From Candidatus Parcubacteria bacterium (lineage in GTDB: Bacteria; Patescibacteriota; Patescibacteriia; UBA1558; GWA2-36-10), in assembly GCA_018669975.1 (NCBI GenBank), contig JABHSK010000009.1, positions 51,127 through 115,126 of the forward strand: a DNA stretch of 64,000 nt, in the 5' to 3' direction. Both the position numbers and the translations under genes were made by a program. Position 1 is the first letter of the stretch. Every line of letters begins with the position of its first letter. The notes beneath the pieces were generated by a model. The model saw only the letters and a list, made by a program, of their open reading frames with translations, ran no database searches and had not been told where the DNA came from. Of this stretch, positions 1,643-45,460 are shown in pieces.

Positions 1643-2263
1643 TTAGGTTCTATTTTTGATAATAAATACCGCCAACATTATCACCAAAAGACCAAATACA
1701 ACATACACCACTATTCCCTGTGGTAATTTGGAATCACCAGCCGCATCAACAGATTGTTGTTGGATTAAATCTTCTGACTGTTCTAGAGAGCCAAATAATT
1801 CTGGCTGCGCTTCCTCGTTTGCACCTCGCTTAACTGGAGTTGGTGTGGGTACTGATGATTTAGACGCTGGTATTTTATCTAAACTAGTAGCTGGACAAGC
1901 ATAAACACTTAAACTCCCTACAGCTTCCTCCAGACCTCTTTTAATAGGTGTATCGCCGATAATATAAGTATCTCCAACAAAAACTATTGGCACTCCACCT
2001 CTGGTGATGGCATGCTTAGCAAACATTTGATTTAATAAATCCGCATTATTTTGATCCTCATAAACTTCATACCAATTAATCTGCCAGGTGGGATTATCAT
2101 TGGCAAGTTGAGTTATAAATGGTTTTACTGCTTCACAATGTGAACAACCGATACCATAGAAAAAATCAACACAAGGCCCACCAGCTGCTTGAGTTTTGTT
2201 AATATTTAACAAAAGACTACTAGCAAAAAATAATATTGATAAAATAAAAATAATTTTCTTCAT
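1643..2263 (-). CDS. secreted thioredoxin-fold thiol-disulfide oxidoreductase, membrane-anchored by a C-terminal TM helix
   Basis: N-terminal signal peptide, CSHC (CxxC) motif, Pro/Thr-rich linker (VPTPTPV), hydrophobic C-terminal helix IVVYVVFGLLVIMLAVFII. Confidence 0.55.
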   Translation of the reverse strand: MKKIIFILSILFFASSLLLNINKTQAAGGPCVDFFYGIGCSHCEAVKPFITQLANDNPTWQINWYEVYEDQNNADLLNQMFAKHAITRGGVPIVFVGDTYIIGDTPIKRGLEEAVGSLSVYACPATSLDKIPASKSSVPTPTPVKRGANEEAQPELFGSLEQSEDLIQQQSVDAAGDSKLPQGIVVYVVFGLLVIMLAVFIIKNRT

Positions 2264-2265
2264 AT

Positions 2266-4065
2266 CTACTCTACGGTTACTGATTTAGCTAAATTTCTAG
2301 GCTTATCCACGTCTAAACCTTTGAGGTCTGCTATATAATAGGCTAATAATTGTAGTGGAATAGCATTGATAATTGGTGAGAGCTCATCAATCACCTCTGG
2401 CACCTTAATAATACTATCAGCTAACTTGGAAATTTCTTTATCATCCTGACTAACAATAGCAATAATGTTTCCGTCACGAGCCTTAACTTCTTGCATATTG
2501 CTAATTATCTTTTGTGATAAATTATTCTTTGTGGCCACAAAAACTACTGGCATATCCTCATCAATTAAAGCAATAGGGCCGTGCTTAATTTCAGCAGCCG
2601 GATAACCCTCGGCATGAATATATGATATCTCTTTGAGTTTTAGAGCGCCTTCTAGAGCTACTGGAAAATTGAGACCTCGCCCTAAATACAAAAAGTTTTT
2701 ACTATCAACAAATTTAGCAGCTACTTCTTTGATATTATCCGCTTGTTTAAGCGCCTGATTAATCTGATATGGTATCTTGTCTAGTTGCTTGAGTAAATCT
2801 TTATCAATCTCATGACCCTGTTGTTGCCTAATATATAAAGCTAACAATAAAAGCGCTACTACCTGTGAAGTAAAAGCCTTGGTGCTAGCCACACCAATCT
2901 CGGGACCAACATGTAAATAAATCCCAGAATCAACTTCTCGAGTAATAGTTGAACCAACTACGTTAACTATACCTAGGGTCTTAGCTTGTTTAACTTTAGC
3001 CTCTCTGAGAGCTGCTAGAGTATCTGCTGTTTCGCCTGATTGAGAAATCACTACCATTACATCCTCTGAGCTAACTATGGGGCTGCGGTATCTAAACTCT
3101 GAAGCATAATCAACCTCAGCAGGAATTTGAGCAATTGATTCCAAAAAATGTTTACCTATCAATGCTGAGTGCCAACTAGTACCACAGGCAGTAATGATAA
3201 TTCTGTTTATTTTCTGAATATCAAAATCAACCGTTAACTTAACTTTCCCATCTTTAATGCGACCTCGTAAAGTATTAGCTATAGCTTCGGGCTGCTCCAT
3301 GATTTCTTTAAGCATAAAATGCTTAAAACCCTTTTTCTCCATTTGCTCAACATTCCATTTTATTTCATCAACCTCCTTATTAATCTGTTCACCCTCGAGG
3401 TTGGTAATAATATATTTACCTTGGGTAATAACAGCAATTTCATTATCGTTAAGATAAATTACTCTCTTAGTATGTTCTAATATGGCAGGAATATCTGAAG
3501 CAATAAACATTTCATTTTCTCCCACACCAATAATCAGTGGCGAGCCTTTACGAGCCACCACTATTTTATTCTCATCCTTATGAATTACAGCTAAACCAAA
3601 GGCTCCTTCTATTAATTTAAGTGCTTGACGTACGGCTGCCTCTAAATCATTCTTATAAAATTTTTCCACCAAATGGGCAATAATCTCTGAATCTGTTTGC
3701 GACTTTATTTTGTGCCCCTCCTTTTTTAATAATTCTGTTAGAGCTTGATGGTTTTCAATAATACCATTATGTACAATGGCTAGTTCCTGCTTACAATCTA
3801 GATGAGGGTGGGCATTAGCCTCATTAGGCTCTCCGTGGGTAGCCCAACGAGTATGAGCAATGCCGATAGCACCATTTAGGGTTTTTGATTTTACTTTTTT
3901 AGCCAGCTCTGAAATCTTACCCTTAGCCTTAACGGTCTTGAGTTGCTGCTTATCTGATACACAAATACCAGCGCTATCATAACCCCGATATTCCAACTTT
4001 TGTAAACCATCTAACAAAAGTGGTGTTATGTCTTTATTGCCAATGTAGCCAATGATTCCACACAT
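2266..4065 (-). CDS. glmS: glutamine--fructose-6-phosphate aminotransferase
   Basis: MCGIIGYIG N-terminal nucleophile, two SIS domains, C-terminal ...KSVTVE; 599 aa. Confidence 0.95.
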   Translation of the reverse strand: MCGIIGYIGNKDITPLLLDGLQKLEYRGYDSAGICVSDKQQLKTVKAKGKISELAKKVKSKTLNGAIGIAHTRWATHGEPNEANAHPHLDCKQELAIVHNGIIENHQALTELLKKEGHKIKSQTDSEIIAHLVEKFYKNDLEAAVRQALKLIEGAFGLAVIHKDENKIVVARKGSPLIIGVGENEMFIASDIPAILEHTKRVIYLNDNEIAVITQGKYIITNLEGEQINKEVDEIKWNVEQMEKKGFKHFMLKEIMEQPEAIANTLRGRIKDGKVKLTVDFDIQKINRIIITACGTSWHSALIGKHFLESIAQIPAEVDYASEFRYRSPIVSSEDVMVVISQSGETADTLAALREAKVKQAKTLGIVNVVGSTITREVDSGIYLHVGPEIGVASTKAFTSQVVALLLLALYIRQQQGHEIDKDLLKQLDKIPYQINQALKQADNIKEVAAKFVDSKNFLYLGRGLNFPVALEGALKLKEISYIHAEGYPAAEIKHGPIALIDEDMPVVFVATKNNLSQKIISNMQEVKARDGNIIAIVSQDDKEISKLADSIIKVPEVIDELSPIINAIPLQLLAYYIADLKGLDVDKPRNLAKSVTVE

Positions 4066-4071
4066 AGATTT

Positions 4072-4716
4072 TTAAATACCTCTTACTTTTCTATATATAC
4101 TTAATATAATTGGTGGGGCATACATTCTAATAAGTTCTTTCCGGCCACTTCTGAATGGACTGCTCCATTGATTTTGCCAAATCTTAAATTTAGTTTTAAA
4201 TCTTTTCATTTCCTCATCAGAAATTTCACCTTTAAAACCAGCACCTACAACAGTATGGGGAAACGTCCTGTCTCCGGCAGAGCCTACAAATGATGAGCTA
4301 AAAGGTTTAAGGAGGCTCTTAAATGCTTCAGGCGTATATCGCCAATAGTCATGCGGATGGTCATGGATGGGGAAATTCATAACAGAACTAATTATCAATA
4401 CACCGTTAGGCTTAAGTATCCTATAAGCTTCTTCAACAGCTTTATGTGGATATTCAACATGTTCTAAGGTGTCCATAATAATAACCGTACCCACTGACTC
4501 TGATGGTATATCTATTTTATGAAGATTTAAAACCACATCAACACCAATGCCCTGCCTCATATCAGCACCAACAAATTTTTTACCTTTGAAAAATGGCCTT
4601 AGGTCAGCTATCTTCTCTTGACCCTCTACCCTTAAAGATCCAAATTCATAAATCACTTCTTTCATCGGTAATGTCTGTGAGCATATTCCAACAAATTGTT
4701 TAACTAGCTTCCTCAT
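4072..4716 (-). CDS. class I SAM-dependent methyltransferase
   Basis: Methyltransf_11-like motifs (GADMRQGIGVD ... LKPNGVLIIS). Confidence 0.65.
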   Translation of the reverse strand: MRKLVKQFVGICSQTLPMKEVIYEFGSLRVEGQEKIADLRPFFKGKKFVGADMRQGIGVDVVLNLHKIDIPSESVGTVIIMDTLEHVEYPHKAVEEAYRILKPNGVLIISSVMNFPIHDHPHDYWRYTPEAFKSLLKPFSSSFVGSAGDRTFPHTVVGAGFKGEISDEEMKRFKTKFKIWQNQWSSPFRSGRKELIRMYAPPIILSIYRKVRGI

Positions 4717-4733
4717 AGATGTTTTATTAGTTT

Positions 4734-6581
4734 TTAATTCTTTCTAACTATAACTAAATAGGCTGGACTTAAATCAAAATTAACAAATAATTTTTGTAAT
4801 ACATAGAATGGAAGGACAAAAAATCCCTTGAAGAAAAAACTAAACCTTCCAGCCACACTTCTATCTATGCCACTTCTAGTAGTATTAACTTCCTTTGAAG
4901 CCATGACATCCTCTTTTTTTATGAGCTTTTTTCTAATAAACCATAACATGTTTGATAAAGGAAAGCCATAATTATAGAATTTAATAATTCTAAAGCCAGC
5001 ATCACCCAACAACTTACTTAATTCCTTTTTTTCATAACGACGATAATGCCCTGCCCACTCATCTAGAATGCTCCATTGTTTTTGATGTGCTGGCACTGAC
5101 ATTATAAATGTTCCATCTTTAGTTAATAGCTTGTTTATTTTATCTAAAGCAAATCTATCATCTTCTATATGCTCTAATACCTCTAGAGCGACTATCATTT
5201 GATACTTATCCTTTTCTGTACTTTTCAAAAAGTCAGCTAATTCAAATTTTATTTTTGGATGACCAACATTGTGCTTAGCAGTAGTAATGGCTTCCTGACC
5301 AATATCAACACCTGTACCTGAACTAAAATATGGGCTAAGACTAGCTATCATATCACCACTGCCAATGCCTATCTCTAAAAATTTATCTACTTTAATTTTA
5401 TTATTTTGTATATATTCTAAGATCGTCCTCTTCCTCATCATATAGGCCGGCGTGGGAAGCCAAGTAGACTTTTGTTTATATTGCAGAACATCTTTAAATG
5501 CTCTGCCTGTTTTAGAAATAACAAAATTATTATTAAATAAGTCAAAAGCTTTGATGGCTATCTTTTCAGCTAAAGCAGGCTCGTTCTTTATCATTAATAT
5601 CTTTTCAGCTAGAACACTTGCATCTTTTGGTGGACAAAACAAACAATTCTCCTGATCTATAAAACCAGCCGATAGAGAAGCCTGACAGTCAGCAATAATC
5701 ACTGGCTTTTTCATAGCTATCATTTGAAAAACTTTATTAGCCACCACTCGTCTACCCTTTTGGCTACCACCAAAATGACCTCCAATACAAACATCTGCCT
5801 GTGCTATCTTGGCTGGCAATCTATCAAAATCAACCCAGTCCATAAACTTAATATTTTTTACTCCTAAATCATTGGACATTTTCAGCATCTTACCATGTAG
5901 CTGACCAGTGCCAATTATTTCTAATTCTATAGATTTATCTGTGGTCAAAATTTTAGCCGCCTTAATTATGGTATCAATCCCATGAATTGGAGAAAACTTT
6001 CCATAAAATAAAACCTTAAACTTGTTAGATTCCTGTTTCTCTAAAGGAAAAAAAATATTCTCATCTGCGCCAATGTATACGTGAGATAATTTCTGTCGTG
6101 GTATCTTAAACTTCTTAGCAAAGTAATCGGCATGTTCAGGCGTGTCTAATATTACTTTATTTGCTAAACGACAACTGATCTTGTCCAAAAAATATAAAGC
6201 TTTTTTTATCAAAAAATTATTACTAGTTTTTCTATCATCAATCATAGTATCATAAATAGATAACATGGGATTAAAGATGATCTTTTTTCTCAAAAATAAA
6301 ACCCTAGCCAATAACATATCCAACTGACCAGGATAACCAACGATAACACAATCAATTTTACCTAGACCAAATCTTTTGATAATTAATTTCAAATATAATA
6401 AAATTGCCAAAAATATCAACAATATTTTCTTCCCCAGGCTAAGATTAATTTTATTTTCAAATTTAGCATATAGATCAACTCGGTATTCCACCACCTCCAC
6501 ACCATTGGCAATTAAACCATTGATAATATTCCTATTACGTGGATAATCTTTTTCATATGTACCAAAATAACAAACTCTCAT
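4734..6581 (-). CDS. bifunctional protein: N-terminal GT-B (GT1/GT4-like) glycosyltransferase fused to a C-terminal class I SAM methyltransferase
   Basis: N-terminal 370 aa glycosyltransferase-like; C-terminal LEIGIGSGDMIASL ... VALEVLEHIEDD ... KDGTFIMSV methyltransferase motifs. Confidence 0.55.
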   Translation of the reverse strand: MRVCYFGTYEKDYPRNRNIINGLIANGVEVVEYRVDLYAKFENKINLSLGKKILLIFLAILLYLKLIIKRFGLGKIDCVIVGYPGQLDMLLARVLFLRKKIIFNPMLSIYDTMIDDRKTSNNFLIKKALYFLDKISCRLANKVILDTPEHADYFAKKFKIPRQKLSHVYIGADENIFFPLEKQESNKFKVLFYGKFSPIHGIDTIIKAAKILTTDKSIELEIIGTGQLHGKMLKMSNDLGVKNIKFMDWVDFDRLPAKIAQADVCIGGHFGGSQKGRRVVANKVFQMIAMKKPVIIADCQASLSAGFIDQENCLFCPPKDASVLAEKILMIKNEPALAEKIAIKAFDLFNNNFVISKTGRAFKDVLQYKQKSTWLPTPAYMMRKRTILEYIQNNKIKVDKFLEIGIGSGDMIASLSPYFSSGTGVDIGQEAITTAKHNVGHPKIKFELADFLKSTEKDKYQMIVALEVLEHIEDDRFALDKINKLLTKDGTFIMSVPAHQKQWSILDEWAGHYRRYEKKELSKLLGDAGFRIIKFYNYGFPLSNMLWFIRKKLIKKEDVMASKEVNTTRSGIDRSVAGRFSFFFKGFFVLPFYVLQKLFVNFDLSPAYLVIVRKN

Positions 6582-6585
6582 ATGA

Positions 6586-7350
6586 TTATTTTTTCTTAGC
6601 TATATAAATAATTTCACTTTGCATCAGATTACTTTTCGTTACAGTGGCTTCATTTAATTGTTCGCAATACCTTTTTGCCTGAACATTAAAGCCAGCGGAT
6701 GCTAACCTGTCTATATAATCACGACCATACAACCTTAAATGATCATACTGCCCAAATAACCTCTCTCTGTCTATTGGCTCAACTATGTTTTTGTCTTCAA
6801 GTGTCCTGTCCCTCTTAGTATCTATCGGCACTTGCAATATTGCCCAGCCACCTGGTTTAAGTACTCGATAAACTTCCTTCATGGCTTTGACATCATCTTC
6901 TACGTGCTCCAAAACATGATTGGCAAACACAACATCAAAAAGATTGTCAGTGAACGGCATTTTGTGAATATCTAATTTTACCTCAGCTAATGGAGAATTA
7001 AGATCGCCGGTTACATACTCAAGGTTAGACATCTTTTTAAATTTTCTATAAAAACATTGTTCTGGGGCCAAATGTAAAACTTTCAATTTATCTCTAAAAA
7101 AATTAGTTTCATTTTTTAAATAAAACCATAATAATCTATGACGCTCCAAAGACAAACAGCCCGGACATAAAGAATTATTTCTATTTTTAGAACCATAAGA
7201 AAAAAACCGACTAAAGCCAGTTTCACATATTGGACAATAGTGTTTATTGCCTTTTAAAAAAATACTAAAAATATTAGAAAAAATAAAACTAAACCTAATT
7301 AGTTGATGCCTTGGTAATTTTTGTATTAAAAATAATTTGGCTCGTCTCAT
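6586..7350 (-). CDS. SAM-dependent methyltransferase with N-terminal zinc-ribbon
   Basis: CPICETGF...CPGC zinc ribbon, then VLHLAPEQ / VVFANHVLEHVEDD / LKPGGWAIL methyltransferase motifs. Confidence 0.65.
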   Translation of the reverse strand: MRRAKLFLIQKLPRHQLIRFSFIFSNIFSIFLKGNKHYCPICETGFSRFFSYGSKNRNNSLCPGCLSLERHRLLWFYLKNETNFFRDKLKVLHLAPEQCFYRKFKKMSNLEYVTGDLNSPLAEVKLDIHKMPFTDNLFDVVFANHVLEHVEDDVKAMKEVYRVLKPGGWAILQVPIDTKRDRTLEDKNIVEPIDRERLFGQYDHLRLYGRDYIDRLASAGFNVQAKRYCEQLNEATVTKSNLMQSEIIYIAKKK

Positions 7351-7366
7351 ATCTCAAGTTTAAAAA

Positions 7367-8671
7367 CTACTCAAACAAAACCATAATACTTACTAATAAT
7401 GGGAAATCTATTTTAACAATTTGCCCATTGGATAATAATATATCAGCAAGTGTTCTTCCCCAGGGATTCAAAAATCCAATCAAAGCAACTACAATTGAAA
7501 TAGCTGTTGTTGTGGTAAATAATAACAAAAAGTTATATGATCTTTTCTTGGTAAACAATAAAAGAAGGAAAAAATAAAGTAGCGGCGTAATAGCAATAAG
7601 CCAACGATAACCAAAGGATGCTCCAGTGTAAACCCTAACCTTTAAAGAATAATATAAAATTATAATTAAAAAACCCACGAAAATTATAAGTGCCTCTAAC
7701 CTAAAATGTGCTTTTCTGTTTCTTAAAATTTTATAAATTGAATAAATTGAAAATAAGAGAATTGGGGTATATAAAAATAATCCATGTGTGCCAAACAATA
7801 TATTTATCAAATAAACCAATGGTCTACTCCTTATTGCTGTGCCGTAGGCAACGCTTACTGGATCCCAGAATTCTGGATGAAATTGAGGTAGCAGAAAATC
7901 ACCAGTAACCTGGTAATTAAGTACCACCTGTAGAATCAACATAGGTAGGGCTGCCAAAATATAGTAAATTATATATTTTTTAGGAAATGTTACTAAACAG
8001 TAAATAAAAAATAAAAATAAAAATGTTAAACCAGTCGGAATATCAATTACCGCTGCCAAAGAAATAAAAAATCCTGATAAACTCAAATATTTTTTATAGT
8101 TATTGGATTTCTTTAATTTTAATTTTAACAAAAAATAAAACCCTATAAACAACAAACTACCCGCGATAGTGTGATTGTTTAAAGAAATAAAAAAAGAAAA
8201 AAATAATGTTCCTAAACCAAAACCTAGTAATAGCCATGTCCTATATTCTTTTCTAATATCTAATAATTTAATAGTTTTGTGGAGGATAAATAATAAGGCG
8301 AAAAAACTACCTCCCACCAAAATTAAATTAATAAAATAAATAGCCCAGCTTTGATCTAACATTCGAATATCAAGATTGAAAACATTGTATAGAACAAAAT
8401 ATACCCCCGCTCCAGCTACTGACAAAACTGGCGGTTTAGAAGAATAATAATTACCATCCCGAAGTATTTTATCATCAGTATTAATCTGATAATCATTGAT
8501 CACTAGTGTGCCTTGCTCAACTATGGCTTGCATAGTCATAAAGCGTGATGAGTTATTGGTACTATCTGAATGGGGTCGTGTAAAAGCTAAGGCAAAGATA
8601 GCAAAAAACATAATCACCAGCAAAAGCTGGGATTTTATAAAATATTGTGCAATGTGTTTTTTGAAACCCAT
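7367..8671 (-). CDS. polytopic integral membrane protein, possible GT-C-fold glycosyltransferase
   Basis: At least 10 hydrophobic helices; sits inside a glycosyltransferase/methyltransferase locus; no recognisable catalytic motif. Confidence 0.35.
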   Translation of the reverse strand: MGFKKHIAQYFIKSQLLLVIMFFAIFALAFTRPHSDSTNNSSRFMTMQAIVEQGTLVINDYQINTDDKILRDGNYYSSKPPVLSVAGAGVYFVLYNVFNLDIRMLDQSWAIYFINLILVGGSFFALLFILHKTIKLLDIRKEYRTWLLLGFGLGTLFFSFFISLNNHTIAGSLLFIGFYFLLKLKLKKSNNYKKYLSLSGFFISLAAVIDIPTGLTFLFLFFIYCLVTFPKKYIIYYILAALPMLILQVVLNYQVTGDFLLPQFHPEFWDPVSVAYGTAIRSRPLVYLINILFGTHGLFLYTPILLFSIYSIYKILRNRKAHFRLEALIIFVGFLIIILYYSLKVRVYTGASFGYRWLIAITPLLYFFLLLLFTKKRSYNFLLLFTTTTAISIVVALIGFLNPWGRTLADILLSNGQIVKIDFPLLVSIMVLFE

Positions 8672-8672
8672 T

Positions 8673-9623
8673 TTAAATGATTTTTTTTATGTAGTGCCTA
8701 GTTTCTTTTTTGTCTGCCTGTCGAACAATAATCTCTCCCAAAAACCCCATTGATATCAACTGGATGCCAATTATGATAAATAATACCCCTAAAAATAACA
8801 ACGGCCTACTACCAATAGCTTGCCCCTGAAACCAAACAATAGTTAAATATAAACACAGACCAGAACCGAGGAGAAAAAACATTAGACCCAAATTACCAAA
8901 GAAATGCGCTGGCTTACGAGCATACTTAGTCAATAAAATAACATTAATTGGATCTAATAAATAATTAGTAAATCTACCTAGTCCAAGATTGCCATATTTT
9001 GATTCGTCAAACTTGCGAGCATGGTGCTTAACTACGACCTCTGTCACCTTAAAGCCTTGTTGGTGAGCTAAAGCTGGCAGGAATCTATGCAGCTCTCCGT
9101 AAACGTTTATATTTTTTACTACCTCTTTTTTATAAATCTTAAAACCACAATTAAAATCATGCAGCTTTATTCCTGTCATTGATGCTACGGTAATATTAAA
9201 TATTTTAGAAGATATTAATTTTACCAAAGGATCCTTGCGATCTTTTTTCCAACCAGAAACCAGATCATAACCCTTATTTATTTTAGCTATTAGATTTGGT
9301 ATCTCATTGGGATCATCTTGCAAGTCAGCATCCATGGTAACAACTAAATCTCCCTGACATTCCTGAAACCCAATAGCTAGGGCTGCGGACTTGCCAAAAT
9401 TACGTCTTAGACTAATTACCTTAATTTGTTGATTGCTTACTTTGAGCTGCTTGAGAATATCTAGAGATCCATCATCAGAACCATCATCTATATAGACTAT
9501 CTCGTATGTTAAATTTAACCCAGTCAAAACATCAACTAATTTATCATTTAATTCCTGCAAAGAACCCTTTTCATTAAAAAGAGGAATTACTATTGATATT
9601 TCTTGATTAATTTTTTCAGACAT
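8673..9623 (-). CDS. GT2 polyprenol-phosphate glycosyltransferase (DPM1/ArnC/GtrB-like) with C-terminal TM helices
   Basis: ISIVIPLFNE, YIDDGSDDGS, TMDADLQDDP (DxD) motifs; two C-terminal TM helices. Confidence 0.85.
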   Translation of the reverse strand: MSEKINQEISIVIPLFNEKGSLQELNDKLVDVLTGLNLTYEIVYIDDGSDDGSLDILKQLKVSNQQIKVISLRRNFGKSAALAIGFQECQGDLVVTMDADLQDDPNEIPNLIAKINKGYDLVSGWKKDRKDPLVKLISSKIFNITVASMTGIKLHDFNCGFKIYKKEVVKNINVYGELHRFLPALAHQQGFKVTEVVVKHHARKFDESKYGNLGLGRFTNYLLDPINVILLTKYARKPAHFFGNLGLMFFLLGSGLCLYLTIVWFQGQAIGSRPLLFLGVLFIIIGIQLISMGFLGEIIVRQADKKETRHYIKKII

Positions 9624-9625: not shown

Positions 9626-10162
9626 TTAAAACTTATTTTTTTTGATTTTAAATATATACCCCAAATAATTAAAGAATGGATGAAAAAACAGAGCCATAGC
9701 CACGGCTGATAATAACATATGCCAAGGCAAGTATACATAAAACGACATAAATATGATAGTGCCTATAATCCAATCTATTTGATCAAATGGAAACCAATAT
9801 ACCCCTGGTTTAATTTGGCGGCGGCGTTTAAAAAAACTCCTAATTGCATCCCCAAACAAAGCACCGAATCCCATAAGAAAGCCTAGCAAAAAAACATTGG
9901 TCTGACTATAATCGATTATCAACCAATCTGTCATACTGCCGGTTATCGTAGTCTGCCAATATAAAAAAACCATACACGCCAAAATACCAAAAAAGAAGCC
10001 ACGAATTGTCTTGTGTGGTCCAAAGATAGGCTGATCTTTATATCTTTTATTAAAATCTATCGGATAATTAAGCCACGGCACCCATTTAAATAAAACCGGC
10101 GCCATGTTGGCTACTCCGGCTGGTAGAAAAAACCAAAATATTTTTACTAAATAAATAAACAT
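9626..10162 (-). CDS. small CTP-transferase-1 family membrane protein (CdsA/CarS-like, DUF46-sized, 178 aa)
   Basis: GPHKTIRGF resembles the SPxKTxEGF motif; C-terminal SFFKRRRQIKPG...FDQID resembles a degenerate CdsA/CarS signature; 5 TM helices. Confidence 0.4.
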   Translation of the reverse strand: MFIYLVKIFWFFLPAGVANMAPVLFKWVPWLNYPIDFNKRYKDQPIFGPHKTIRGFFFGILACMVFLYWQTTITGSMTDWLIIDYSQTNVFLLGFLMGFGALFGDAIRSFFKRRRQIKPGVYWFPFDQIDWIIGTIIFMSFYVYLPWHMLLSAVAMALFFHPFFNYLGYIFKIKKNKF

Positions 10163-10175
10163 TCAAATCAAGCTA

Positions 10176-10823
10176 TTAAAAATCTTTAAGGCTTTTCTTC
10201 TTACCCTTTAACTCCTTTTTTATTTTTGCAAAACTAACTACGGTTAATATTATAATCAGAACAGAGAATGCTAATAAAGCAATATTTAAATAATTTGCTC
10301 CTGTGAATGCCCACCATATATATAACGCATAAACCAAACCTTTACTTCTAACCACTAAACGAACGGGGATCTTGAGCCAATATCTAACAATAATAAAGAA
10401 TAGCCAAACCGTATAGAAATAAATATAAAGCAAACCAATATTAGGATCTATCAACCTAAATATACCCAGAGTTAAGACAACAATAAAAATACCTGTGTGA
10501 TCACAAACAGTATCAACTAAATCTCCCTCGGTATCATCCTGTTTAAGTAAACGGGCTAGCCCACCATCTATACCATCAATAAAAACATGTACTACTAAAA
10601 AAATACTAGCTATTTTTGGAGCATCTAAAACAAAATACACAAAACCACCCAAAATAAATATTCCAAAATAACTCAAGTGATTAGCACTAACGTTTATTTT
10701 TTTGAAAAATAAAGCTAGTGGTGAAAAAAATAAATCCCTCCAGCACCTAACTCTTTTATATAGAGTTTGCTCGGTTTCACAATAGTCATCTAAATACTTG
10801 TCTATTTTATGTATTTCGGACAT
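10176..10823 (-). CDS. CDP-alcohol phosphatidyltransferase family protein
   Basis: DGIDGGLARLLKQDDTEGDLVDTVCD matches D-G-x2-A-R-x8-G-x3-D-x3-D; multi-pass membrane protein. Confidence 0.8.
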   Translation of the reverse strand: MSEIHKIDKYLDDYCETEQTLYKRVRCWRDLFFSPLALFFKKINVSANHLSYFGIFILGGFVYFVLDAPKIASIFLVVHVFIDGIDGGLARLLKQDDTEGDLVDTVCDHTGIFIVVLTLGIFRLIDPNIGLLYIYFYTVWLFFIIVRYWLKIPVRLVVRSKGLVYALYIWWAFTGANYLNIALLAFSVLIIILTVVSFAKIKKELKGKKKSLKDF

Positions 10824-10962: not shown

Positions 10963-11733
10963 ATGGATGAGCAAAACAATACCCCTTTAAACAACGTGGC
11001 TACACCAACTGACGCATCAATGCCTGCTAGTGACGCCCCGGTCAACCCCACTTCCATGACTAATAATCAATTAGCCAATCAAGGCGTACCAGCTGAAATA
11101 TCTAATGAAACAGCTACTACACCTTTAGCAGCAGAACCAGCGCCAGTTACCCCCGAAGCAGTTACTCCTGCAAAAACTCAAGAGCAAACCTTTGGTAAGA
11201 GTGAACTTTTAAATGCCAAAGATATATTACTGGACATGCTAGGAATGGATATAGGGAATATGGTTGCCGATTTAGGAGCTGGCGGAGGGTTGTTTACTTT
11301 AACAGCGGCTAGAATAGTTGGGGATCAAGGACAGGTTTATGCCGTTGATATTATAAAAAATAGTTTATCTGAAATAGAATCAAAGGCTAGGATGGCCGGA
11401 CTGTATAATATCAAAACTATATGGAGTAATATAGAAATGGTTGGGGCCACAAAAATTCCCGATGCTTCCCTAGATTATGCTATGTTAGTTAATGTCTTGT
11501 TTCAATCAAAAAAACACTTTGAAATGATGAGCGAAGCTACTCGCCTATTAAAACCAAATGGAAAATTACTAATCGTAGATTGGAGTAATACTAACCCTGG
11601 TTTTGCACCAAATAATGACATGAAAGTTGATAAAGATAGCTTGATAAATAATTCTGCTCAAATAAATTTACTATTAGACAAAGAGTTCAAAGCTGGCGAA
11701 TACCATTTTGGCTTAATTTTCATAAAACAATAA
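10963..11733 (+). CDS. class I SAM-dependent methyltransferase with low-complexity Pro/Thr/Ala-rich N-terminal region
   Basis: VADLGAGGGLFT motif I, LLKPNGKLLIVDW; TGn-TATAAT extended -10 at about 10930-10940. Confidence 0.65.
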   Translation: MDEQNNTPLNNVATPTDASMPASDAPVNPTSMTNNQLANQGVPAEISNETATTPLAAEPAPVTPEAVTPAKTQEQTFGKSELLNAKDILLDMLGMDIGNMVADLGAGGGLFTLTAARIVGDQGQVYAVDIIKNSLSEIESKARMAGLYNIKTIWSNIEMVGATKIPDASLDYAMLVNVLFQSKKHFEMMSEATRLLKPNGKLLIVDWSNTNPGFAPNNDMKVDKDSLINNSAQINLLLDKEFKAGEYHFGLIFIKQ

Positions 11734-11772
11734 AATTTATACTAATGATTACCAACCTCGCTCTCAGCGGGG

Positions 11773-12237
11773 TTGACTTTATTTTACGAATTATTTAACA
11801 TAGAAATACTTATAAAATATAATTTTATGGATTTATCAAAACTTTTGAATTTCGAATACTTATTTGCACGTTTTCCTGAAGCAGGATTTTCTTGGCCTGT
11901 CAGAATCGGTCTATTGATTATTTTTGTTGGCGCCATTATAGTAGCCCTGTATACACATAAAAAACTTAAACAAAATTTGGGTGTGGCTGGAAAAGCTTGG
12001 AAAAGATTACAAGTTTGGAGCTGGTCAGTTGGACTCGTTGGTATTATGCTCGTTTATTTCAGAGAAGTAAGGGCTCTATATCTTAGTTCCAGGTTCTGGT
12101 TAATCCTCTGGTTACTAGTATCTGTAGTGTGGTTAATCTATATCATCGCAAAATGGAAAAAAGATGTCCCTAATAAAGAGACCCAAGAAAAGCATAAACA
12201 AGAATATTCTAAATGGTTACCTAAACAAAATAAATAA
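11773..12237 (+). CDS. small membrane protein, function unknown (alternative start ATG at 11827)
   Basis: Three predicted TM helices and a Lys-rich C-terminus. Confidence 0.35.
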   Translation: MTLFYELFNIEILIKYNFMDLSKLLNFEYLFARFPEAGFSWPVRIGLLIIFVGAIIVALYTHKKLKQNLGVAGKAWKRLQVWSWSVGLVGIMLVYFREVRALYLSSRFWLILWLLVSVVWLIYIIAKWKKDVPNKETQEKHKQEYSKWLPKQNK

Positions 12238-29527: not shown

Positions 29528-30466
29528 TTACAGTCCTTGTCTATAAAAATCAGCAGCATCAGCTGGATCAATTGGATTAATAATCAAACCAGAACCAATT
29601 TCTACTCCAGCCCAAACCGAACCACGCGGAACTACCTTCATATACAAATGCTGATCATTATCATTTATAACTTGGTGGAAATAAAAATTGTAAGGTAAAT
29701 TCAGTTGCCCTATTTTTGTTAGGAGGTGTTTTAAGGACTTAGCAAAAGACTTCCTCTCTAGGTCATTCAACTCTGTAATATTATCTCTATGCTTAATAGG
29801 CATAATCCATGCCTCATAATTAAACATGGATGCATATGGAGTAAAGACAATTATATGTTTATCTTTATAAATCAATCTAGGACTTTTTGACTCTTTGGCT
29901 ATTACATCACAATAAACACAGTGCCCATGCTTCAACTTATAAGCTTGCTGACGTTGTGATTTGTCGAATAAATGTGGTGGTAAAAATTTTGTAGCAAAAA
30001 TTTGTGAGTGTGCGTGTTGCAAGCTAGCTCCGGCCACACCACCATTATTCTTAAATATTAATATATATTCAATTTTATTATTCTTGGAGATCTCTTTAGT
30101 GCGCTCTGAATAAGCCACTAATAAATCAGATATATGCTCAGTTGATAAGTCCTCAAGCTCTTGTGTATGGTCTGGTGTTTCTACTACTACCTCCTGTTGA
30201 CCATAGGCCTCTTTATTATCCAAAGAAACGGCTGGGTATTTATTGGCAATTATTTTTATCTGCCAATCATTATTTTTTCCTTTTTTATAAAGCGCTGGCA
30301 CACCCTTTAAACTGTCTGGGCAAAAAATACAAGAAGATACCATTTCTTTACGATGATTCTTAGGCACAATTGTGTCGTGTGGCCTCTTGCCACGTTTAGG
30401 GGCAATAATAACGTACTTTTCCTGAATATAATCTTTTCTTATTTCTGGACCTTTCATTTTACTCAT
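29528..30466 (-). CDS. galT: galactose-1-phosphate uridylyltransferase-family (GalT, HIT-like) nucleotidyltransferase
   Basis: IIAPKRGKRPHD and CIFCPD zinc motifs, HGHCVYCD, active-site HAHSQIF (HxHxQ). Confidence 0.65.
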   Translation of the reverse strand: MSKMKGPEIRKDYIQEKYVIIAPKRGKRPHDTIVPKNHRKEMVSSCIFCPDSLKGVPALYKKGKNNDWQIKIIANKYPAVSLDNKEAYGQQEVVVETPDHTQELEDLSTEHISDLLVAYSERTKEISKNNKIEYILIFKNNGGVAGASLQHAHSQIFATKFLPPHLFDKSQRQQAYKLKHGHCVYCDVIAKESKSPRLIYKDKHIIVFTPYASMFNYEAWIMPIKHRDNITELNDLERKSFAKSLKHLLTKIGQLNLPYNFYFHQVINDNDQHLYMKVVPRGSVWAGVEIGSGLIINPIDPADAADFYRQGL

Positions 30467-30470
30467 ATAA

Positions 30471-31970
30471 TTATTTTAATTTTTTATAAAGTTTTATATA
30501 ATCTTTAGCTGATCTATTCCAAGAAAAATCTTCACGCATACCAGCTGCTCTAATTTTCTTAAATTTGGTTTTGTTGTTATATATACGAATAGATCGCTCT
30601 AGTGCTTTCCTCATCTCAATCTGAGTATATTTTTTGAAAACAACCCCTGTTTTGTTGTTATTAACCGTATCCTTAAGTCCTCCTGTTTGTCTAACTATTG
30701 GTATAGTACCATAGCGCATAGCTATCATCTGACCCAAGCCACATGGTTCAAAACGAGAAGGCATTAAAAAGAAATCTGAGCCAGCATATATTTGTTGTGC
30801 CAATTTTAAACTAAAAGTAATATCAGCTCTAACTTTTTCAGGATATTTTTTAGCTAGCTCTTTAAAACCATCTTCATACTTATCATAACCTGTCCCCAAA
30901 ATAACCACTTGAATATCATGTTTCTTAACAATGCTCTCTAAAGCTGGTAGTAGTATATCTAAACCTTTTTGCTTGACTAAACGAGTGACTAACCCAAACA
31001 CTGGCTTGTCTTCAACTGGCAATTTAGAGGTTTTCTGTAAATATTCTTTATTACTCTGTTTGCCTTGAACGATAGTTTTAAGGGTATATCTTTTTTTAAT
31101 TAACTTATCCTTGGCTGGATCAAATAATTTAAGATCCAAACCATTTACTATGCCGGCTAAATGATTCTTTCTACGCAGTAAATATTTCTCTAGACCTGCT
31201 CCATACTCTTTGGTTAAAATCTCTTTAGCATAATTAGGACTAACTGTGTTAATGTAGTCGGCTGATAAGATTCCAACTTTCATAGAATCTATCTTGTGTC
31301 CATCCTTGTCATAATAATCTTCCATGAGAGCCGGCGTCAGCCTATGGTCCATGCTGCCATAATCTACTATGTCCAATCCAGTCACCCCTTGATTTGCTAA
31401 ATTATGAATAGTAAATAATGTTCTAATATTATCAAAGTGTGTATCCTCTAAATTATATTCATCTACAAATGTGGGTAACAATGCTGTATGCCAATCATGA
31501 CAATGAATCACATCGGGCCTCCACTTAAACTCCTTGACCATCTCAACTACAGCTTTAGAAAAAAATGTGAATCTCTCTACATCTCCAACACCTTTAATAC
31601 GTTTTTTCTTACTAGCACGCCTAACATTCTTTACATAATTACCACGACCCAAATAAACATTAGGACCATCAAATATTTTATGTTTAATAAAATAAATCTT
31701 TACTTGACTACCTGGCAATTTTCCTTGATAGATATCAAATTTAGCCTGCCTGTCTTCTATGAGCATGCTTAAATTTTTTTTAAAAAGTTTTATCTTATAT
31801 TTTCTTTTATTAATGCTGCCATATAATGGTAATGCTACCTTTATGTTAGTATTTAACTTTGCTAGAGCTATTGGCAAAGAACCCATTACATCACCCAGTC
31901 CACCAACCTTGGCAAATGGCGCTAATTCTCCTCCTACTAATAATACTTCAAGTTTATTTTTGTTTGGCAT
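30471..31970 (-). CDS. glgA: glycogen/starch synthase (GT5)
   Basis: N-terminal KVGGLGDV variant of the KTGGLADV motif; GT-B C-terminal domain; 499 aa. Confidence 0.85.
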   Translation of the reverse strand: MPNKNKLEVLLVGGELAPFAKVGGLGDVMGSLPIALAKLNTNIKVALPLYGSINKRKYKIKLFKKNLSMLIEDRQAKFDIYQGKLPGSQVKIYFIKHKIFDGPNVYLGRGNYVKNVRRASKKKRIKGVGDVERFTFFSKAVVEMVKEFKWRPDVIHCHDWHTALLPTFVDEYNLEDTHFDNIRTLFTIHNLANQGVTGLDIVDYGSMDHRLTPALMEDYYDKDGHKIDSMKVGILSADYINTVSPNYAKEILTKEYGAGLEKYLLRRKNHLAGIVNGLDLKLFDPAKDKLIKKRYTLKTIVQGKQSNKEYLQKTSKLPVEDKPVFGLVTRLVKQKGLDILLPALESIVKKHDIQVVILGTGYDKYEDGFKELAKKYPEKVRADITFSLKLAQQIYAGSDFFLMPSRFEPCGLGQMIAMRYGTIPIVRQTGGLKDTVNNNKTGVVFKKYTQIEMRKALERSIRIYNNKTKFKKIRAAGMREDFSWNRSAKDYIKLYKKLK

Positions 31971-32047
31971 ATTATATTTAACAAATATTAATTAACATTC
32001 TTATTATATCAAAAAACACCCTTTATCAAAAGGATGTTTCTGTACAA

Positions 32048-32626
32048 TTATGTTTCCTTTAAAAAACCTAGAATATCCTCTACCAATGCCGGGTTTGGTA
32101 ATACAGAGGCGTTGACTATCAAATATTCTAATTGGCTTGATTTTATTAAATCAATATACATTCGTTGTTGCTTAAGGTACTCCTTTGGCTGCTGAGCAAT
32201 ACGATCATAATGCGGATAAAGATTAAGCCTGTCCTCTAGACGTTTAGCTATTAATGACTCGTCTTCATCAAAAATAACCAAAATAATCTTAGCCTTAATT
32301 AATTTCAACCTTGCTTCTATGTCACTAAAATCAAAGGTTTTATTATTATATAGTTTTTGATAAACAGTTTCAGTTAAATGAAATTTTTCTACCATTACAT
32401 TAGTATCATTTATCTCTTCCATCAACTCTAGATACTTAAGTAGTGCTGTTTGTCCAAACTTAGTACCAAAAATACCTACATCACAGTTAAACCAATGACA
32501 ACCATCCATAATTTTTCCGCCACTATAATATTTTTGCTCCAAATGATTAAATATTTGGCTCATTAAATAACTTTTTCCTCCCAATTCTGGTCCTTCAAAT
32601 ATTATATTATGCTTAGGATTCTTCAT
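32048..32626 (-). CDS. P-loop kinase, thymidylate/deoxynucleoside-kinase-like fold
   Basis: IIFEGPELGGKSY Walker A resembling the TMK/dNK xEGxxGxGKS/T motif; 192 aa. Confidence 0.35.
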   Translation of the reverse strand: MKNPKHNIIFEGPELGGKSYLMSQIFNHLEQKYYSGGKIMDGCHWFNCDVGIFGTKFGQTALLKYLELMEEINDTNVMVEKFHLTETVYQKLYNNKTFDFSDIEARLKLIKAKIILVIFDEDESLIAKRLEDRLNLYPHYDRIAQQPKEYLKQQRMYIDLIKSSQLEYLIVNASVLPNPALVEDILGFLKET

Positions 32627-32627
32627 C

Positions 32628-33704
32628 TTAATGAAGGTTAATTATTTTTTCTTCTTTTTTGACTACTGCTAGATAACCCTGGGAATCTTGTAATAAATCA
32701 TCAATAGGGTTTTCTGCATCATTCATATAAAACAAAAATATGGCCGTTCTCAATGCTGTCCAGGCTTGATATAGGTTGATCCTAGATATATATTCAATGT
32801 CAATTTTGTCAAAATCTTTTTTAAAATAAGCTGAAATAAAAAATGTCTTATAATTGTTTATCTGCTCCCGAGAAATAAAATTGTGCCCCATGAAATCTAA
32901 TTGTTGTAGAAATGTTCCTAAATCCATCATTGGGTCACCATAGGCCAAATCTGTAAAATCTATCATCTCTAGGTCTTTAGAGTTAAGATCAAAAACAATT
33001 ATGTTCTCTGGATGATAATCACCATAAATAACTATATTACCCATCTTTGCTCTAAATTTATTTTCTAGAGCATTCATTTCCTCAGTTAACTCTTTAACTA
33101 GCTTTCCCTGCGTTTCGTCCTGATCCATAAAGTCTGCAATAAACTTACTAGGCTTAGGAGTCATGCCACTAATCTTAAAGGTGGGCCAATCAAACTTAAA
33201 TTTATTAGTATCAAAACAATGTAGTTTTTTTATCCAACCAGCTGCTAGAGTCAAACTTGGACCTAAATCAGCCTTGGGATCTTGAGTAAAAAAATGAAAT
33301 AAACTACGTCCAATAGAGGCCTCATAGAAGAAAGCCATTTGTTCCTTGCTAAAAAACAACGGCTTGGTCACTCGATATTTTCCTTTCCCAAAACCATGCT
33401 CATATAAGAACTTTGTTTTTCTATAGGCCTCCTCTTTGGTGCCATCTGAGTGCGCACCCGCAAAAATATCAATACTCTGTTGTTCATTTTGCTTGTCAAT
33501 ATATTTGACTCTGTATTCAACAACAAAGACTGCACTGGTAGCTCCCAAATGTTTTTTGTGAGCCTCTAACTCTACACTCTCTAACTCCTGAAAACCATCA
33601 AGGTGCTCTGGTAGATGCTTTCGCAATATTTCCTCCGCAAAACTTTTGTCTAGCAATTTAGCTATCCTATTTTTAGTTTGCTCTGTCGGTGTTTTTTTGT
33701 CCAT
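32628..33704 (-). CDS. aminoglycoside-phosphotransferase-fold small-molecule kinase (APH/maltokinase/fructosamine-kinase-like)
   Basis: Catalytic loop IYGDYHPENIIVF and DFTDLAYGDPMMDLG (DFG/GDP motifs); start 2 nt after the stop of the P-loop kinase gene. Confidence 0.6.
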   Translation of the reverse strand: MDKKTPTEQTKNRIAKLLDKSFAEEILRKHLPEHLDGFQELESVELEAHKKHLGATSAVFVVEYRVKYIDKQNEQQSIDIFAGAHSDGTKEEAYRKTKFLYEHGFGKGKYRVTKPLFFSKEQMAFFYEASIGRSLFHFFTQDPKADLGPSLTLAAGWIKKLHCFDTNKFKFDWPTFKISGMTPKPSKFIADFMDQDETQGKLVKELTEEMNALENKFRAKMGNIVIYGDYHPENIIVFDLNSKDLEMIDFTDLAYGDPMMDLGTFLQQLDFMGHNFISREQINNYKTFFISAYFKKDFDKIDIEYISRINLYQAWTALRTAIFLFYMNDAENPIDDLLQDSQGYLAVVKKEEKIINLH

Positions 33705-33718
33705 ACCACAAATTTTAT

Positions 33719-34936
33719 CTATTTATTATACTTGCGCCAATGTGTTAGCCAGGTATTTTTCTTAATATCTATATAAAGTTTCTCTGCTTTTATTTTTTCT
33801 TTACTAGTAGCCTTTTTCAATGATCTAACAGCTCGTATCAACTCTTCTGAGCCATTATCAATCATATCTGGATTCCATGTTAAAGGAGAAAATTCTGATG
33901 GCTTCTTAGCTGATGACCACCAAAAAGTACATGACGATACTCCACGGTCTAAGTGTTGCCTAGCCCACTGCCAATTACTATCACGCCTATATTTATAAAC
34001 TAAGTCACTAGCTAAATCCACCATCTGCCATAGCAGTTGATGAATTTTATTACTAGGATGATTCCATAAGGCATAGGGAATGTTTTTTCTAAGCTCTGCT
34101 TCGGTACTCTCCCAAGAAGCATCGCGTAAACCTATTATTTTTTTACTCCTTATTCCTGACAAATATTCTCCAACAGTCAAAACATCTAACTGTTTATTTT
34201 GTAAAATCTTTTCCAAATGACCTTGCCAATCCTCGTGCTGATGGCCATATATCTCTCCGTCTGTAGCAGTGATGATTGTTTCTGACTTTTTAAGTTGTTT
34301 TCTGAATTTCAAATAAATAACTTCTGCTGGGTATGCTTTAGATATTTTTCTGTTTCTAAAAATGACTTTTAATCCTATGTTTTTTATTTGATATAGAACA
34401 TCATCTTCTATTTTATCTTGAAAGTTGATAGCATCTAATATTATCCATTTGAAGCCTAATTTCTTCACTACCTTAGCAGCCTTAAAACTATAAGACATTT
34501 CTGGAAAATAAAATCCTTTAGTTTGACGTATGTCAAAATACTGTGCCAAAACTTCTTGATTAAGCTCAATCTGACGTTTAATTTCCCGCTCATTCAGTAG
34601 TGGTAGTAAAGCATGATATTTAGAAGATCCAGTTATCTCTATTTGTCCACGATCAACTAATTTTTTTAGCTTAACTAATAAATCTGGGCGTACATTGGCT
34701 AGTTGCTCTACCAAACTACCTGTAACGTTCAGCGTACAGCTAAAATTTCTATATTTATTCAACAGGGTAAACAAATACTCATAGCTCTCACTAGCTATTT
34801 GTTCAATCACGCCCCTGTGTTGCCAGGGTGGTTGGTAAATATGTAAAAAATTAACCCAGGTTATTTTATTTTTCATCTTGTTTTTTAAATTTAATCGCTT
34901 TTTTATAAAGTTCAATGTATTCCTTACCTGGTACAT
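33719..34936 (-). CDS. glycoside hydrolase family 57 alpha-glucan-active enzyme (alternative start at 34876)
   Basis: FLHIYQPPWQ (H-x-Y/H-Q-P) and EITGSSKYHALLPLL motifs characteristic of GH57. Confidence 0.55.
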   Translation of the reverse strand: MYQVRNTLNFIKKRLNLKNKMKNKITWVNFLHIYQPPWQHRGVIEQIASESYEYLFTLLNKYRNFSCTLNVTGSLVEQLANVRPDLLVKLKKLVDRGQIEITGSSKYHALLPLLNEREIKRQIELNQEVLAQYFDIRQTKGFYFPEMSYSFKAAKVVKKLGFKWIILDAINFQDKIEDDVLYQIKNIGLKVIFRNRKISKAYPAEVIYLKFRKQLKKSETIITATDGEIYGHQHEDWQGHLEKILQNKQLDVLTVGEYLSGIRSKKIIGLRDASWESTEAELRKNIPYALWNHPSNKIHQLLWQMVDLASDLVYKYRRDSNWQWARQHLDRGVSSCTFWWSSAKKPSEFSPLTWNPDMIDNGSEELIRAVRSLKKATSKEKIKAEKLYIDIKKNTWLTHWRKYNK

Positions 34937-44956: not shown

Positions 44957-45043
44957 TATATTTAGAAAGTAAAGCCTAGTGGAGGCTAAGCTCTAGTAGG
45001 TCATAATTCAATGACCTACTATAGTCTAGACTACATAGGTCTA

Positions 45044-45456: not shown

Positions 45457-45460
45457 TAGA

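Follow-up and report, generated by a model that had tools for sequence, protein, structure and literature searches.

The closest described counterparts of the locus considered here are the multi-component transmembrane glycosylation systems GtrB/GtrA/GtrC, CsbB/GtcA/YfhO, GacI/GacK/GacL and ArnC/ArnEF/ArnT (PMC8035078, PMC11127046). The locus occupies positions 4072–9623 of a 64,000-nucleotide stretch (hereafter, the window) of contig JABHSK010000009.1 of Candidatus Parcubacteria bacterium and consists of five genes for glycosyltransferases and methyltransferases. As in those systems, a GT2 glycosyltransferase homologous to ArnC and GtrB is followed by a polytopic GT-C-fold transferase with an invariant acidic residue in its first loop, and the two genes form a conserved pair. 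Unlike in those systems, the GT-C protein has neither a Pfam model nor a solved relative recognizable by sequence, no GtrA-type flippase was found nearby, and the pair is embedded with a GT4–methyltransferase fusion and up to three further methyltransferases; to our knowledge, such a fusion and extra methyltransferases around the pairs of multi-component systems have no prior description. The locus is part of a real, conserved operon, which, with moderate confidence, we regard as encoding part of a polyprenol-phosphate-based cell-surface glycan pathway, in line with the glycan-assembly role proposed in an earlier note on this DNA and supported here by the GT2/GT-C core and by operon conservation. 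The pathway type as such is known; what is new is that a widespread family without annotation has been assigned to the GT-C fold and to partnership with an ArnC-like GT2, together with the GT4–methyltransferase fusion and the finding that, in bacteria of the Candidate Phyla Radiation (CPR), several methyltransferases cluster about such a pair. A literature search returned no paper dealing with Patescibacteria together with GT-C glycosyltransferases.

Multidomain enzymes that, like the fusion described here, unite a methyltransferase dependent on S-adenosylmethionine (SAM) with one or more glycosyltransferase modules in one polypeptide include WsaE of Geobacillus stearothermophilus (PMC2943079) and ORF6 of the Klebsiella pneumoniae O7 locus (PMC11231755), in which the methyl group is placed at the cytoplasmic face on the sugar just built of a polyprenol-linked glycan. 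These enzymes have an N-terminal methyltransferase, GT2-type modules and a coiled coil or kinase and act as chain terminators together with Wzm/Wzt ABC export, whereas in the fusion a GT4 domain precedes the methyltransferase, no long coiled coil is seen in the structure model, and the associated genes are Wzx and Wzy_C instead of an ABC transporter (no ABC2_membrane or Wzt genes in the window). The architecture had been called unusual in the earlier note, which is apt insofar as the GT4–methyltransferase order is a minority form in its clade; it is nevertheless recurrent, and glycosyltransferase–methyltransferase enzymes as a class are known. In comparison with GT4 enzymes acting on lipid-linked acceptors (PglA, PglH, PimA, PimB' and the WcaI family), the identity of the fusion was only 12–19%; its score against the WcaI family was 43 bits versus a cut-off of 276, and the E-x7-E motif is replaced by R278...Q286. 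In mycobacteria, polymethylated polysaccharides are produced by the MMP pathway (ManT with MeT1/MeT3) and the MGLP pathway (Rv3032 with Rv3030), and the ManT structure was among the structural matches. These polysaccharides are soluble and cytoplasmic, and their synthesis is not known to involve a polyprenol-phosphate GT2 or GT-C enzyme, whereas here the membrane machinery is the conserved core.

The GT2/GT-C core and its operon

The coordinates, lengths and minus-strand orientation reported earlier for the five open reading frames (ORFs) were exact, as judged by ORF positions and translations. Pfam matches, evaluated by curated gathering scores, bore out the methyltransferase, fusion, methyltransferase and GT2 calls made for four of them; NCBIfam matches were evaluated by curated equivalog or family cut-offs. 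The five genes are as follows:

4072–4716, minus strand: small class I SAM methyltransferase, 214 aa (Methyltransf_11, 40 bits, cut-off 21)
4734–6581, minus strand: bifunctional protein, 615 aa, with a GT-B domain of GT4 type (aa 1–367) and a class I SAM methyltransferase domain (aa 378–615)
6586–7350, minus strand: zinc-ribbon class I SAM methyltransferase, 254 aa (Methyltransf_11, 60 bits)
7367–8671, minus strand: GT-C-fold glycosyltransferase of an undescribed family, 434 aa, about 11 transmembrane (TM) segments, predicted to depend on a polyprenol-phosphate sugar and to act outside the cytoplasmic membrane
8673–9623, minus strand: ArnC/GtrB/PgfS-like GT2, 316 aa, predicted membrane-anchored polyprenol-phosphate sugar synthase with two C-terminal TM helices

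Since the spacing between genes is 1–17 bp, these five form the centre of a nine-gene operon on the minus strand, which runs from 10823 down to 1643 in the order CDP-alcohol phosphatidyltransferase, CarS-like protein, GT2, 434-aa GT-C protein, zinc-ribbon methyltransferase, fusion, 214-aa methyltransferase, GlmS and a thioredoxin-like membrane protein. The G+C content of the window is about 31–40%, and the surroundings of the operon consist of bacterial housekeeping genes (NusA, trigger factor, H+-pyrophosphatase, PolA, PBP1 and RecA). An archaeal origin, suggested by the CarS-like gene, was rejected, given that NusA, trigger factor, PBP1 and PolA are bacterial and that proteins of the window, namely the 434-aa protein (HOB10_05110) and the 254-aa methyltransferase, are 100% identical to Candidatus Parcubacteria records. 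Rfam and tRNA scans revealed only four tRNAs, none of them inside the locus, and a scan for promoter and terminator consensus sequences was uninformative (50 promoter-like sites versus 45 expected).

The 316-aa protein is a full-length ArnC/GtrB-type enzyme: it matched Pfam Glycos_transf_2 with 113.8 bits and aligned over its whole length with the solved structures of ArnC (E = 3e-49), GtrB sll0501 (5e-43) and DPMS (2e-21). The hydropathy scan placed TM segments at aa 245–263 and 275–293, both C-terminal helices being included in the ArnC/GtrB match, and the DAD motif was present in the translation (MDADLQDD). These features point to a membrane-linked enzyme of the GtrB/ArnC/CsbB type, predicted to make a polyprenol-phosphate sugar.

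The 434-aa protein had been described as a polytopic membrane protein; it is indeed polytopic, with 11 hydrophobic segments in the hydropathy scan, and what that description missed is its identity as a glycosyltransferase. The protein had no Pfam match, and a search of PDB sequences with it and with its 42-sequence profile returned nothing, even at E = 10. It was fold comparison alone that identified it as a GT-C-fold glycosyltransferase, the closest structure being ALG12, with ALG3, ALG9, STT3B, AftD, AftB, PglB and PimE at lower Z. Among the 42 homologues, D67 is invariant and E52 is conserved in at least 90%; both residues lie between TM1 (aa 11–29) and TM2 (aa 81–98), and D67 is followed by the motif YSSKPPVLS. 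This corresponds to the DxD-like conserved acidic residue of the first extracytoplasmic loop, with a presumed catalytic role. The protein has no large soluble domain, and soluble acceptor-binding domains like those of PMT and OST enzymes are missing, in which it appears to resemble the ALG/PimE-type GT-C enzymes that act on lipid-linked acceptors. It should be noted that in the public annotation the gene product (P0121) has only 390 aa, its start being placed 44 codons after the ATG at 8671; since homologues such as P0122 (434 aa, 100% coverage) can be aligned from their first residue onwards, the public record probably lacks TM1.

Relatives of the GT-C protein, collected by a motif scan with one genome per species, were found in at least 557 genomes. 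Their identity was 42–50% in Patescibacteria and 24–30% in Planctomycetota, Terriglobia, Verrucomicrobia and others, including Singulisphaera acidiphila DSM 18658. An ArnC-like GT2 gene (E below 1e-40) was located directly upstream of the GT-C gene on the same strand in 27 of the 76 assessable loci, and in 11 more it was present elsewhere in the locus, in several cases in fact adjacent; the pairing extends to Gemmataceae, Isosphaeraceae, Terriglobia and S. acidiphila. From these gene neighbourhoods, the GT2 and GT-C pair, and not the methyltransferases, is the evolutionarily conserved core across several phyla. Duplication of the GT-C gene was observed in L001 and L003/L011 (L numbers denote related loci), with one copy upstream of the ArnC-like GT2 gene and the other downstream of the fusion.

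The GT4–methyltransferase fusion and the accompanying methyltransferases

The reading of the N-terminal half of the 615-aa protein as a glycosyltransferase held: Pfam Glyco_trans_1_4 matched at aa 188–330 with 54.8 bits (cut-off 27) and Glycos_transf_1 with 41.7 bits (cut-off 26.4), while Methyltransf_23 matched at aa 395–533 with 58 bits (cut-off 27). The structure model (pLDDT 88.6) confirmed both folds, namely, a GT-B domain of two Rossmann domains and a class I methyltransferase domain, in which motif I is intact (LEIGIGSG). Hydrophobic helices identified from the model and hydropathy, at aa 49–71 and at the C-terminus, suggest that the protein is membrane-associated.

Full-length fusions of the same domain order were found on many independent contigs, with 47–80% identity in Patescibacteria and 30–37% in more distant clusters, so the fusion is no assembly artefact. 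About 11 of the best 150 representatives at 50% identity, drawn from 1267 clusters with E ≤ 1e-30, are fusions, and the methyltransferase domain also exists in a stand-alone form (P0384, P0408). Judging by these homologues, the GT4–methyltransferase architecture recurs within a widespread GT4 clade but is found in a minority of its members; one unfused relative, in Aminicenantes, sits inside a Wzm/Wzt polysaccharide locus. The fusion and the other methyltransferases are lineage-specific additions in Patescibacteria. The apparently unfused GT4 of L005/L009 was considered as a case of gene fission, which was rejected, as two ORF fragments after it match the methyltransferase domain and represent a broken fusion. 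In that metagenome-assembled genome of Patescibacteria, the fusion is split at 3458–5352 into the GT4, a 73-aa ORF and a 142-aa ORF, by pseudogenization or a sequencing error.

The region 4072–7350 holds three methyltransferase domains (two stand-alone, one fused), not the four in 3.3 kb counted earlier, and not the three stand-alone enzymes beside the fusion that the title of the earlier note implied; further methyltransferase genes lie outside the range, at 10963–11733 and 39427–40050. The methyltransferases have the Rossmann-like class I fold. In the 214-aa enzyme, the Pfam match covers only the C-terminal half of the Methyltransf_11 profile, and motif I is divergent or partial (YEFGS). Wherever this enzyme was found, its gene directly follows the fusion, as does a 76%-identical orthologue in L002 and likewise the copies in L013 and a 214-kb JGI contig.

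The zinc ribbon ascribed to the 254-aa protein is real: C39, C42, C62 and C65 are invariant in 25 homologues, as are SLERHR, NHVLEH and LHxAPEQ, the last of which stands in place of motif I (E/DxGxGxG). The family has more than 8000 close members of about 55% identity across Parcubacteria, Bacteroidota, cyanobacteria and Desulfobacterota, and its conservation over these groups is unusually high, with a mean column identity of 67%. The gene adjoins the GT2/GT-C pair in the Komeilibacteria-type loci L006, L007 and L010, and in Marinifilum it lies beside an ArnC-like GT2 gene whose product is 46% identical to that of the window. Its neighbourhoods were examined in 83 loci (L088–L170), of which 61 metagenomic loci could be scored for upstream sequence; an ArnC-like GT2 gene was directly upstream in 4 of the 61 and in 6 of the 83. 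A general partnership of this methyltransferase with the ArnC-like GT2 failed as a rule at 4 of 61 loci, and for that reason the enzyme is not claimed as a confirmed member of the pathway; from these neighbourhoods, its link to the pathway is recurrent and not general.

It had been asked whether the methyltransferases might be housekeeping enzymes for rRNA, tRNA or ubiquinone. For the three domains of the locus and the divergent enzyme at 10963–11733, the best NCBIfam scores against such families (UbiE/UbiG/MenG, rRNA, tRNA and protein methyltransferases) were 21–43 bits versus cut-offs of 100–500, so that UbiE, UbiG, rRNA or tRNA methylation was rejected as a positively supported role. The divergent gene, on the plus strand, encodes a UbiE/ArsM-like methyltransferase of 256 aa, the fourth methyltransferase gene, and is followed by a gene for a small protein with three TM segments and no family match; this pair (10963–12237, plus strand) shows conserved synteny, being located beside the GT2/GT-C operon also in L002, in L006 and on the JGI contig. 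In five distinct loci (L005, L006, L008, L017 and L033), a MetW-like methyltransferase gene directly follows the GT-C gene. Altogether, the methyltransferases that flank the GT2/GT-C pair in the various loci of Patescibacteria belong to four different families, and this recurrent synteny, together with the fusion, leads us to infer methylation of sugars, which several of the methyltransferases probably decorate.

Related loci, the second glycan region and the remaining operon genes

Three nested versions of the locus occur at the same chromosomal position, beside the block of the divergent methyltransferase and NusA. The first, comprising all nine genes in conserved order, is found in the window and in its closest relative (69–82% protein identity), so that the locus conservation for which the earlier note had suggested comparative genomics was indeed observed. 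The second (L002 and L013) comprises the GT2, the GT-C protein, the fusion, the small methyltransferase and GlmS and is devoid of the zinc-ribbon methyltransferase and CDP-alcohol genes, and the third (L006, L007 and L010) has no GT4 and comprises the GT2, the GT-C protein and two methyltransferases, the zinc-ribbon enzyme and one of 197 aa. In another lineage of Patescibacteria, there is one larger array of Wzx, Wzy_C, a sulfatase, an MptA_B-type GT-C, a GT2, the GT-C protein, the ArnC-like GT2 and the fusion, continued by a second GT-C paralogue, a polytopic protein of 546–564 aa, DUF2079 and then pilin genes. Wzx, Wzy_C, the MptA_B-type GT-C, DUF2079 and the 546–564-aa protein are contiguous with the fusion in L001, L003, L004, L005 and two JGI contigs, and in L001, in L004 and on two JGI contigs the fusion locus is joined to orthologues of the Wzx and Wzy_C genes of the window. 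The corresponding genes of the window lie in a second region:

37801–39426, plus strand: unannotated polytopic protein, 541 aa, about 8 TM segments, large first loop
39427–40050, minus strand: MetW-like methyltransferase MT207 (Pfam), the fifth methyltransferase gene
40151–41755, plus strand: unannotated polytopic protein, 534 aa, about 8 TM segments, large first loop; orthologue in L014
41730–43631, minus strand: DUF2079 protein (Pfam); orthologue in L014
47847–52125, minus strand: sugar-1-phosphate nucleotidylyltransferase, DUF6498 protein, Wzy_C protein (polymerase or ligase) and Wzx-type flippase (Pfam), the flippase gene at 50698–52125 being 40 kb from the operon and the only flippase candidate in the window

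Of these, the 541-aa protein corresponds to the 546–564-aa gene of L003, L004, L005, L008, L012 and L017, and MT207 matches the MetW-like methyltransferase that follows the GT-C gene in the five loci named above. Since orthologues of these genes are contiguous with the module in relatives, the genes at 37.8–52.1 kb were assigned to the same system as the operon; by this synteny, the studied locus is one half of a split surface-glycan gene set. Several small genes for T4SS-pilin-like proteins (PF18895-type) were also observed at 44573–46472 (minus strand), and arrays of 6–10 such genes flank the glycan locus in related genomes, beside DUF2079.

The other four genes of the operon are as follows:

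10176–10823, minus strand: CDP-alcohol phosphatidyltransferase, first gene of the operon, about 5 TM segments (Pfam CDP-OH_P_transf, 42.6 bits, cut-off 22)
9626–10162, minus strand: CarS-like membrane protein of the CTP:lipid-phosphate cytidylyltransferase family, 178 aa (Pfam CarS-like, 88 bits; CTP_transf_1, 41.6 bits)
2266–4065, minus strand: GlmS, glutamine-fructose-6-phosphate transaminase (NCBIfam TIGR01135, 842 bits, cut-off 418)
1643–2263, minus strand: last gene of the operon, 206 aa, with a signal-like N-terminus, a CxxC thioredoxin-like domain, a low-complexity linker and a C-terminal TM segment

The CDP-alcohol enzyme retains an intact DGx2ARx8Gx3Dx3D motif (DGGLARLLKQDDTEGDLVDTVCD); its best NCBIfam match was archaetidylinositol-phosphate synthase (43 bits, cut-off 180), and another family gave 27 bits (cut-off 170). 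The CarS-like protein, whose gene is 2 bp from that of the GT2, scored 124 bits against CDP-archaeol synthase, under the cut-off of 148; this is an archaeal-type family, here inside a bacterial operon. The earlier note had pointed to an adjacent CDP-alcohol system; the pair (9626–10823, minus strand) does belong to the operon here, but this membership is limited to the present genome and its closest relative and was found in none of the 18 other related Patescibacteria loci (L001–L017 and L033). The pair could be a CdsA substitute, part of a lipid-anchor pathway or a polyprenol-related activity. GlmS is syntenic in four loci, following the small methyltransferase also in L002, L013 and the JGI contig, and its place in the operon is a weak hint at hexosamine in the glycan. 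The 206-aa protein (TM segments at aa 4–22 and 184–202; weak glutaredoxin match, E = 0.006), in place of which the closest relative has a 194-aa gene, is probably, by its domain composition, an extracytoplasmic thiol-disulfide oxidoreductase.

Proposed pathway and competing explanations

From the enzyme classes, the fusion and the synteny, a direction of sugar flow, a site and substrate of methylation and an acceptor can be proposed. At the cytoplasmic face, the GT2 would use a nucleotide sugar to charge polyprenol phosphate with a sugar, and the lipid-sugar would then be flipped, with the Wzx-type protein as the candidate flippase. Outside the membrane, the compact GT-C enzyme would pass the sugar to an acceptor, probably a lipid- or wall-linked glycan rather than a protein. 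On the cytoplasmic side, the membrane-associated GT4 domain would add a residue derived from a nucleotide sugar to a lipid-linked intermediate, the fused methyltransferase domain would O-methylate the product, and the 214-aa and, less certainly, the zinc-ribbon methyltransferases would add further methyl groups; because SAM is cytoplasmic, methylation would have to precede export. GlmS may supply hexosamine, and the CarS-like and CDP-alcohol enzymes, a lineage-specific add-on, may make a lipid anchor or head group.

Several observations weigh against this pathway. The donor sugar, the acceptor and the methylated product cannot be read from sequence, and none of the GT2, the GT4 domain and the methyltransferases reached an NCBIfam equivalog cut-off. 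The canonical E-x7-E of GT4 is absent from the fusion; around the aligned R278...Q286, K275 and K283 are invariant, and the second position is E in some homologues (e.g., YEALAMKKP). Variants of a similar kind occur in some GT4 subfamilies, and the missing pair lowers certainty on donor binding, not on the GT-B fold. GlmS and the thioredoxin-like gene share the operon, and in genomes as compact as those of this group, belonging to one operon argues less strongly for a shared function. In L008, L012 and L014 there is a GT2/GT-C pair but no fusion, and L006 has the pair with no GT4 at all; the zinc-ribbon family lies mostly outside glycan loci, its commonest neighbour, directly upstream in 33 loci, being methionine aminopeptidase. 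A hydropathy screen of 90–200-aa ORFs returned no GtrA-type flippase in the 64-kb window, only two T4SS-pilin-like genes, in a screen conservative enough that the 178-aa CarS-like protein was not returned either. No priming phosphoglycosyltransferase was seen among the Pfam annotations of the window genes scanned.

With the GT-C assignment, a function class is given to a family that has no Pfam model and is present in at least 557 species-level genomes, including that of the culturable Singulisphaera; the family is the partner of an ArnC/GtrB-like GT2, and a testable gene set is defined (GT2, GT-C, GT4–methyltransferase fusion, several methyltransferases, Wzx and Wzy_C). The cell envelopes of CPR bacteria are almost unknown and the cells live attached to hosts, whose contact with them is likely mediated by surface glycans. 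Should sugar methylation be confirmed, the fusion would unite two steps in one compact enzyme, which might be useful for glycoengineering; should it not be confirmed, the locus would still be an ordinary member of a well-known pathway type.

The order of methylation may differ from that proposed. Methyl groups might be placed on the polyprenol-phosphate monosaccharide before flipping, much as ArnD acts on undecaprenyl-phosphate-Ara4FN, so that the GT-C enzyme would deliver a pre-methylated sugar and the GT4 step would be separate and optional. L006, L007 and L010 hold the GT2, the GT-C protein and the zinc-ribbon and 197-aa methyltransferases with no other glycosyltransferase, and the lipid-phosphate sugar is therefore the sole sugar substrate within these loci; the position of the MetW-like gene immediately after the GT-C gene in five loci and that of the zinc-ribbon gene directly after an ArnC-like GT2 gene, without a GT-C gene, in six Bacteroidota-type loci point the same way. 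However, the fused methyltransferase is covalently tied to the GT4 and not to the GT2, which points to the GT4 product as its substrate, about 90% of the zinc-ribbon loci have no adjacent ArnC-like GT2, and literature searches found no methylation of a polyprenol-phosphate monosaccharide, of which we know no characterized case. We consider this order unlikely. A broader extension, to which we assign a still smaller probability, is that in Patescibacteria, and perhaps beyond them, as the pairs of zinc-ribbon methyltransferase and ArnC-like GT2 in Bacteroidota may suggest, sugars are O-methylated on the polyprenol-phosphate carrier and then delivered across the membrane by the undescribed GT-C family, possibly coupled to a lipid anchor made by the CarS-like and CDP-alcohol enzymes. 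Carrier-linked methylation, if true, would be an undescribed route to methylated surface glycans, and coupling to a lipid anchor would mean that a lipoglycan is present in organisms regarded as incapable of lipid synthesis of their own.

It is also improbable, in our estimation, that the stand-alone methyltransferases, or some of them, act outside glycan synthesis and share the operon only through genome compactness; on this reading, the substrate of the zinc-ribbon enzyme above all may be a lipid head group, a protein or a small molecule. The size of its family and its conservation across the four groups would fit a universal substrate, its commonest neighbours are methionine aminopeptidase and ApbE (27 loci), its weak PDB matches include phospholipid and phosphoethanolamine N-methyltransferases, and in the window its gene is near lipid head-group genes, with GlmS and the thioredoxin-like gene in the same operon. 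On the other hand, its gene is repeatedly found next to that of an ArnC-like GT2 in phyla that are unrelated, another GT2 family is a neighbour in 11 loci, the 214-aa methyltransferase always directly follows the fusion, no curated cut-off of a housekeeping family was approached, and the synteny with methionine aminopeptidase may only reflect the sampled contigs, most of which are apparently from closely related Bacteroidota.

Glycosylation of proteins by the GT2/GT-C pair (pilins, S-layer or Ser/Thr-rich disordered regions), in the manner of streptococcal PgfS/PgfM1 or of PMT enzymes, seems distinctly unlikely. The PgfS score was 157 bits versus a cut-off of 500, the GT-C protein lacks the soluble domains with which PMT and OST enzymes bind acceptors and is closest to ALG12, which acts on lipid-linked glycans, and Wzx and Wzy_C co-localize with the module in relatives.

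Most doubtful is a lipoglycan similar to phosphatidylinositol mannosides or lipomannan, in which the CarS-like and CDP-alcohol enzymes would make a phospho-alcohol lipid anchor, the GT4 would act inside like PimA/PimB, the GT2 like Ppm1 and the GT-C enzyme outside like PimE/MptA/MptB, with the methyltransferases decorating the product, since these similarities are at the fold level and common to all GT4 and GT-C enzymes, the CDP-alcohol enzyme scores far under its cut-off, its pair with the CarS-like protein is absent from the other related loci, the Pfam annotations of the scanned genes in the window include no inositol-1-phosphate synthase, and the best score of the phosphatase-family gene, likewise under the cut-off, is for histidinol-phosphatase.

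Elsewhere in the window, a cluster of alpha-glucan metabolism genes was observed at 29528–36344 (minus strand), comprising two GT5 starch/glycogen-synthase-like genes, a GH57 enzyme, a GalT-like HIT-family transferase and an APH-type kinase, which might be related to maltose-1-phosphate or trehalose-type glucan pathways.

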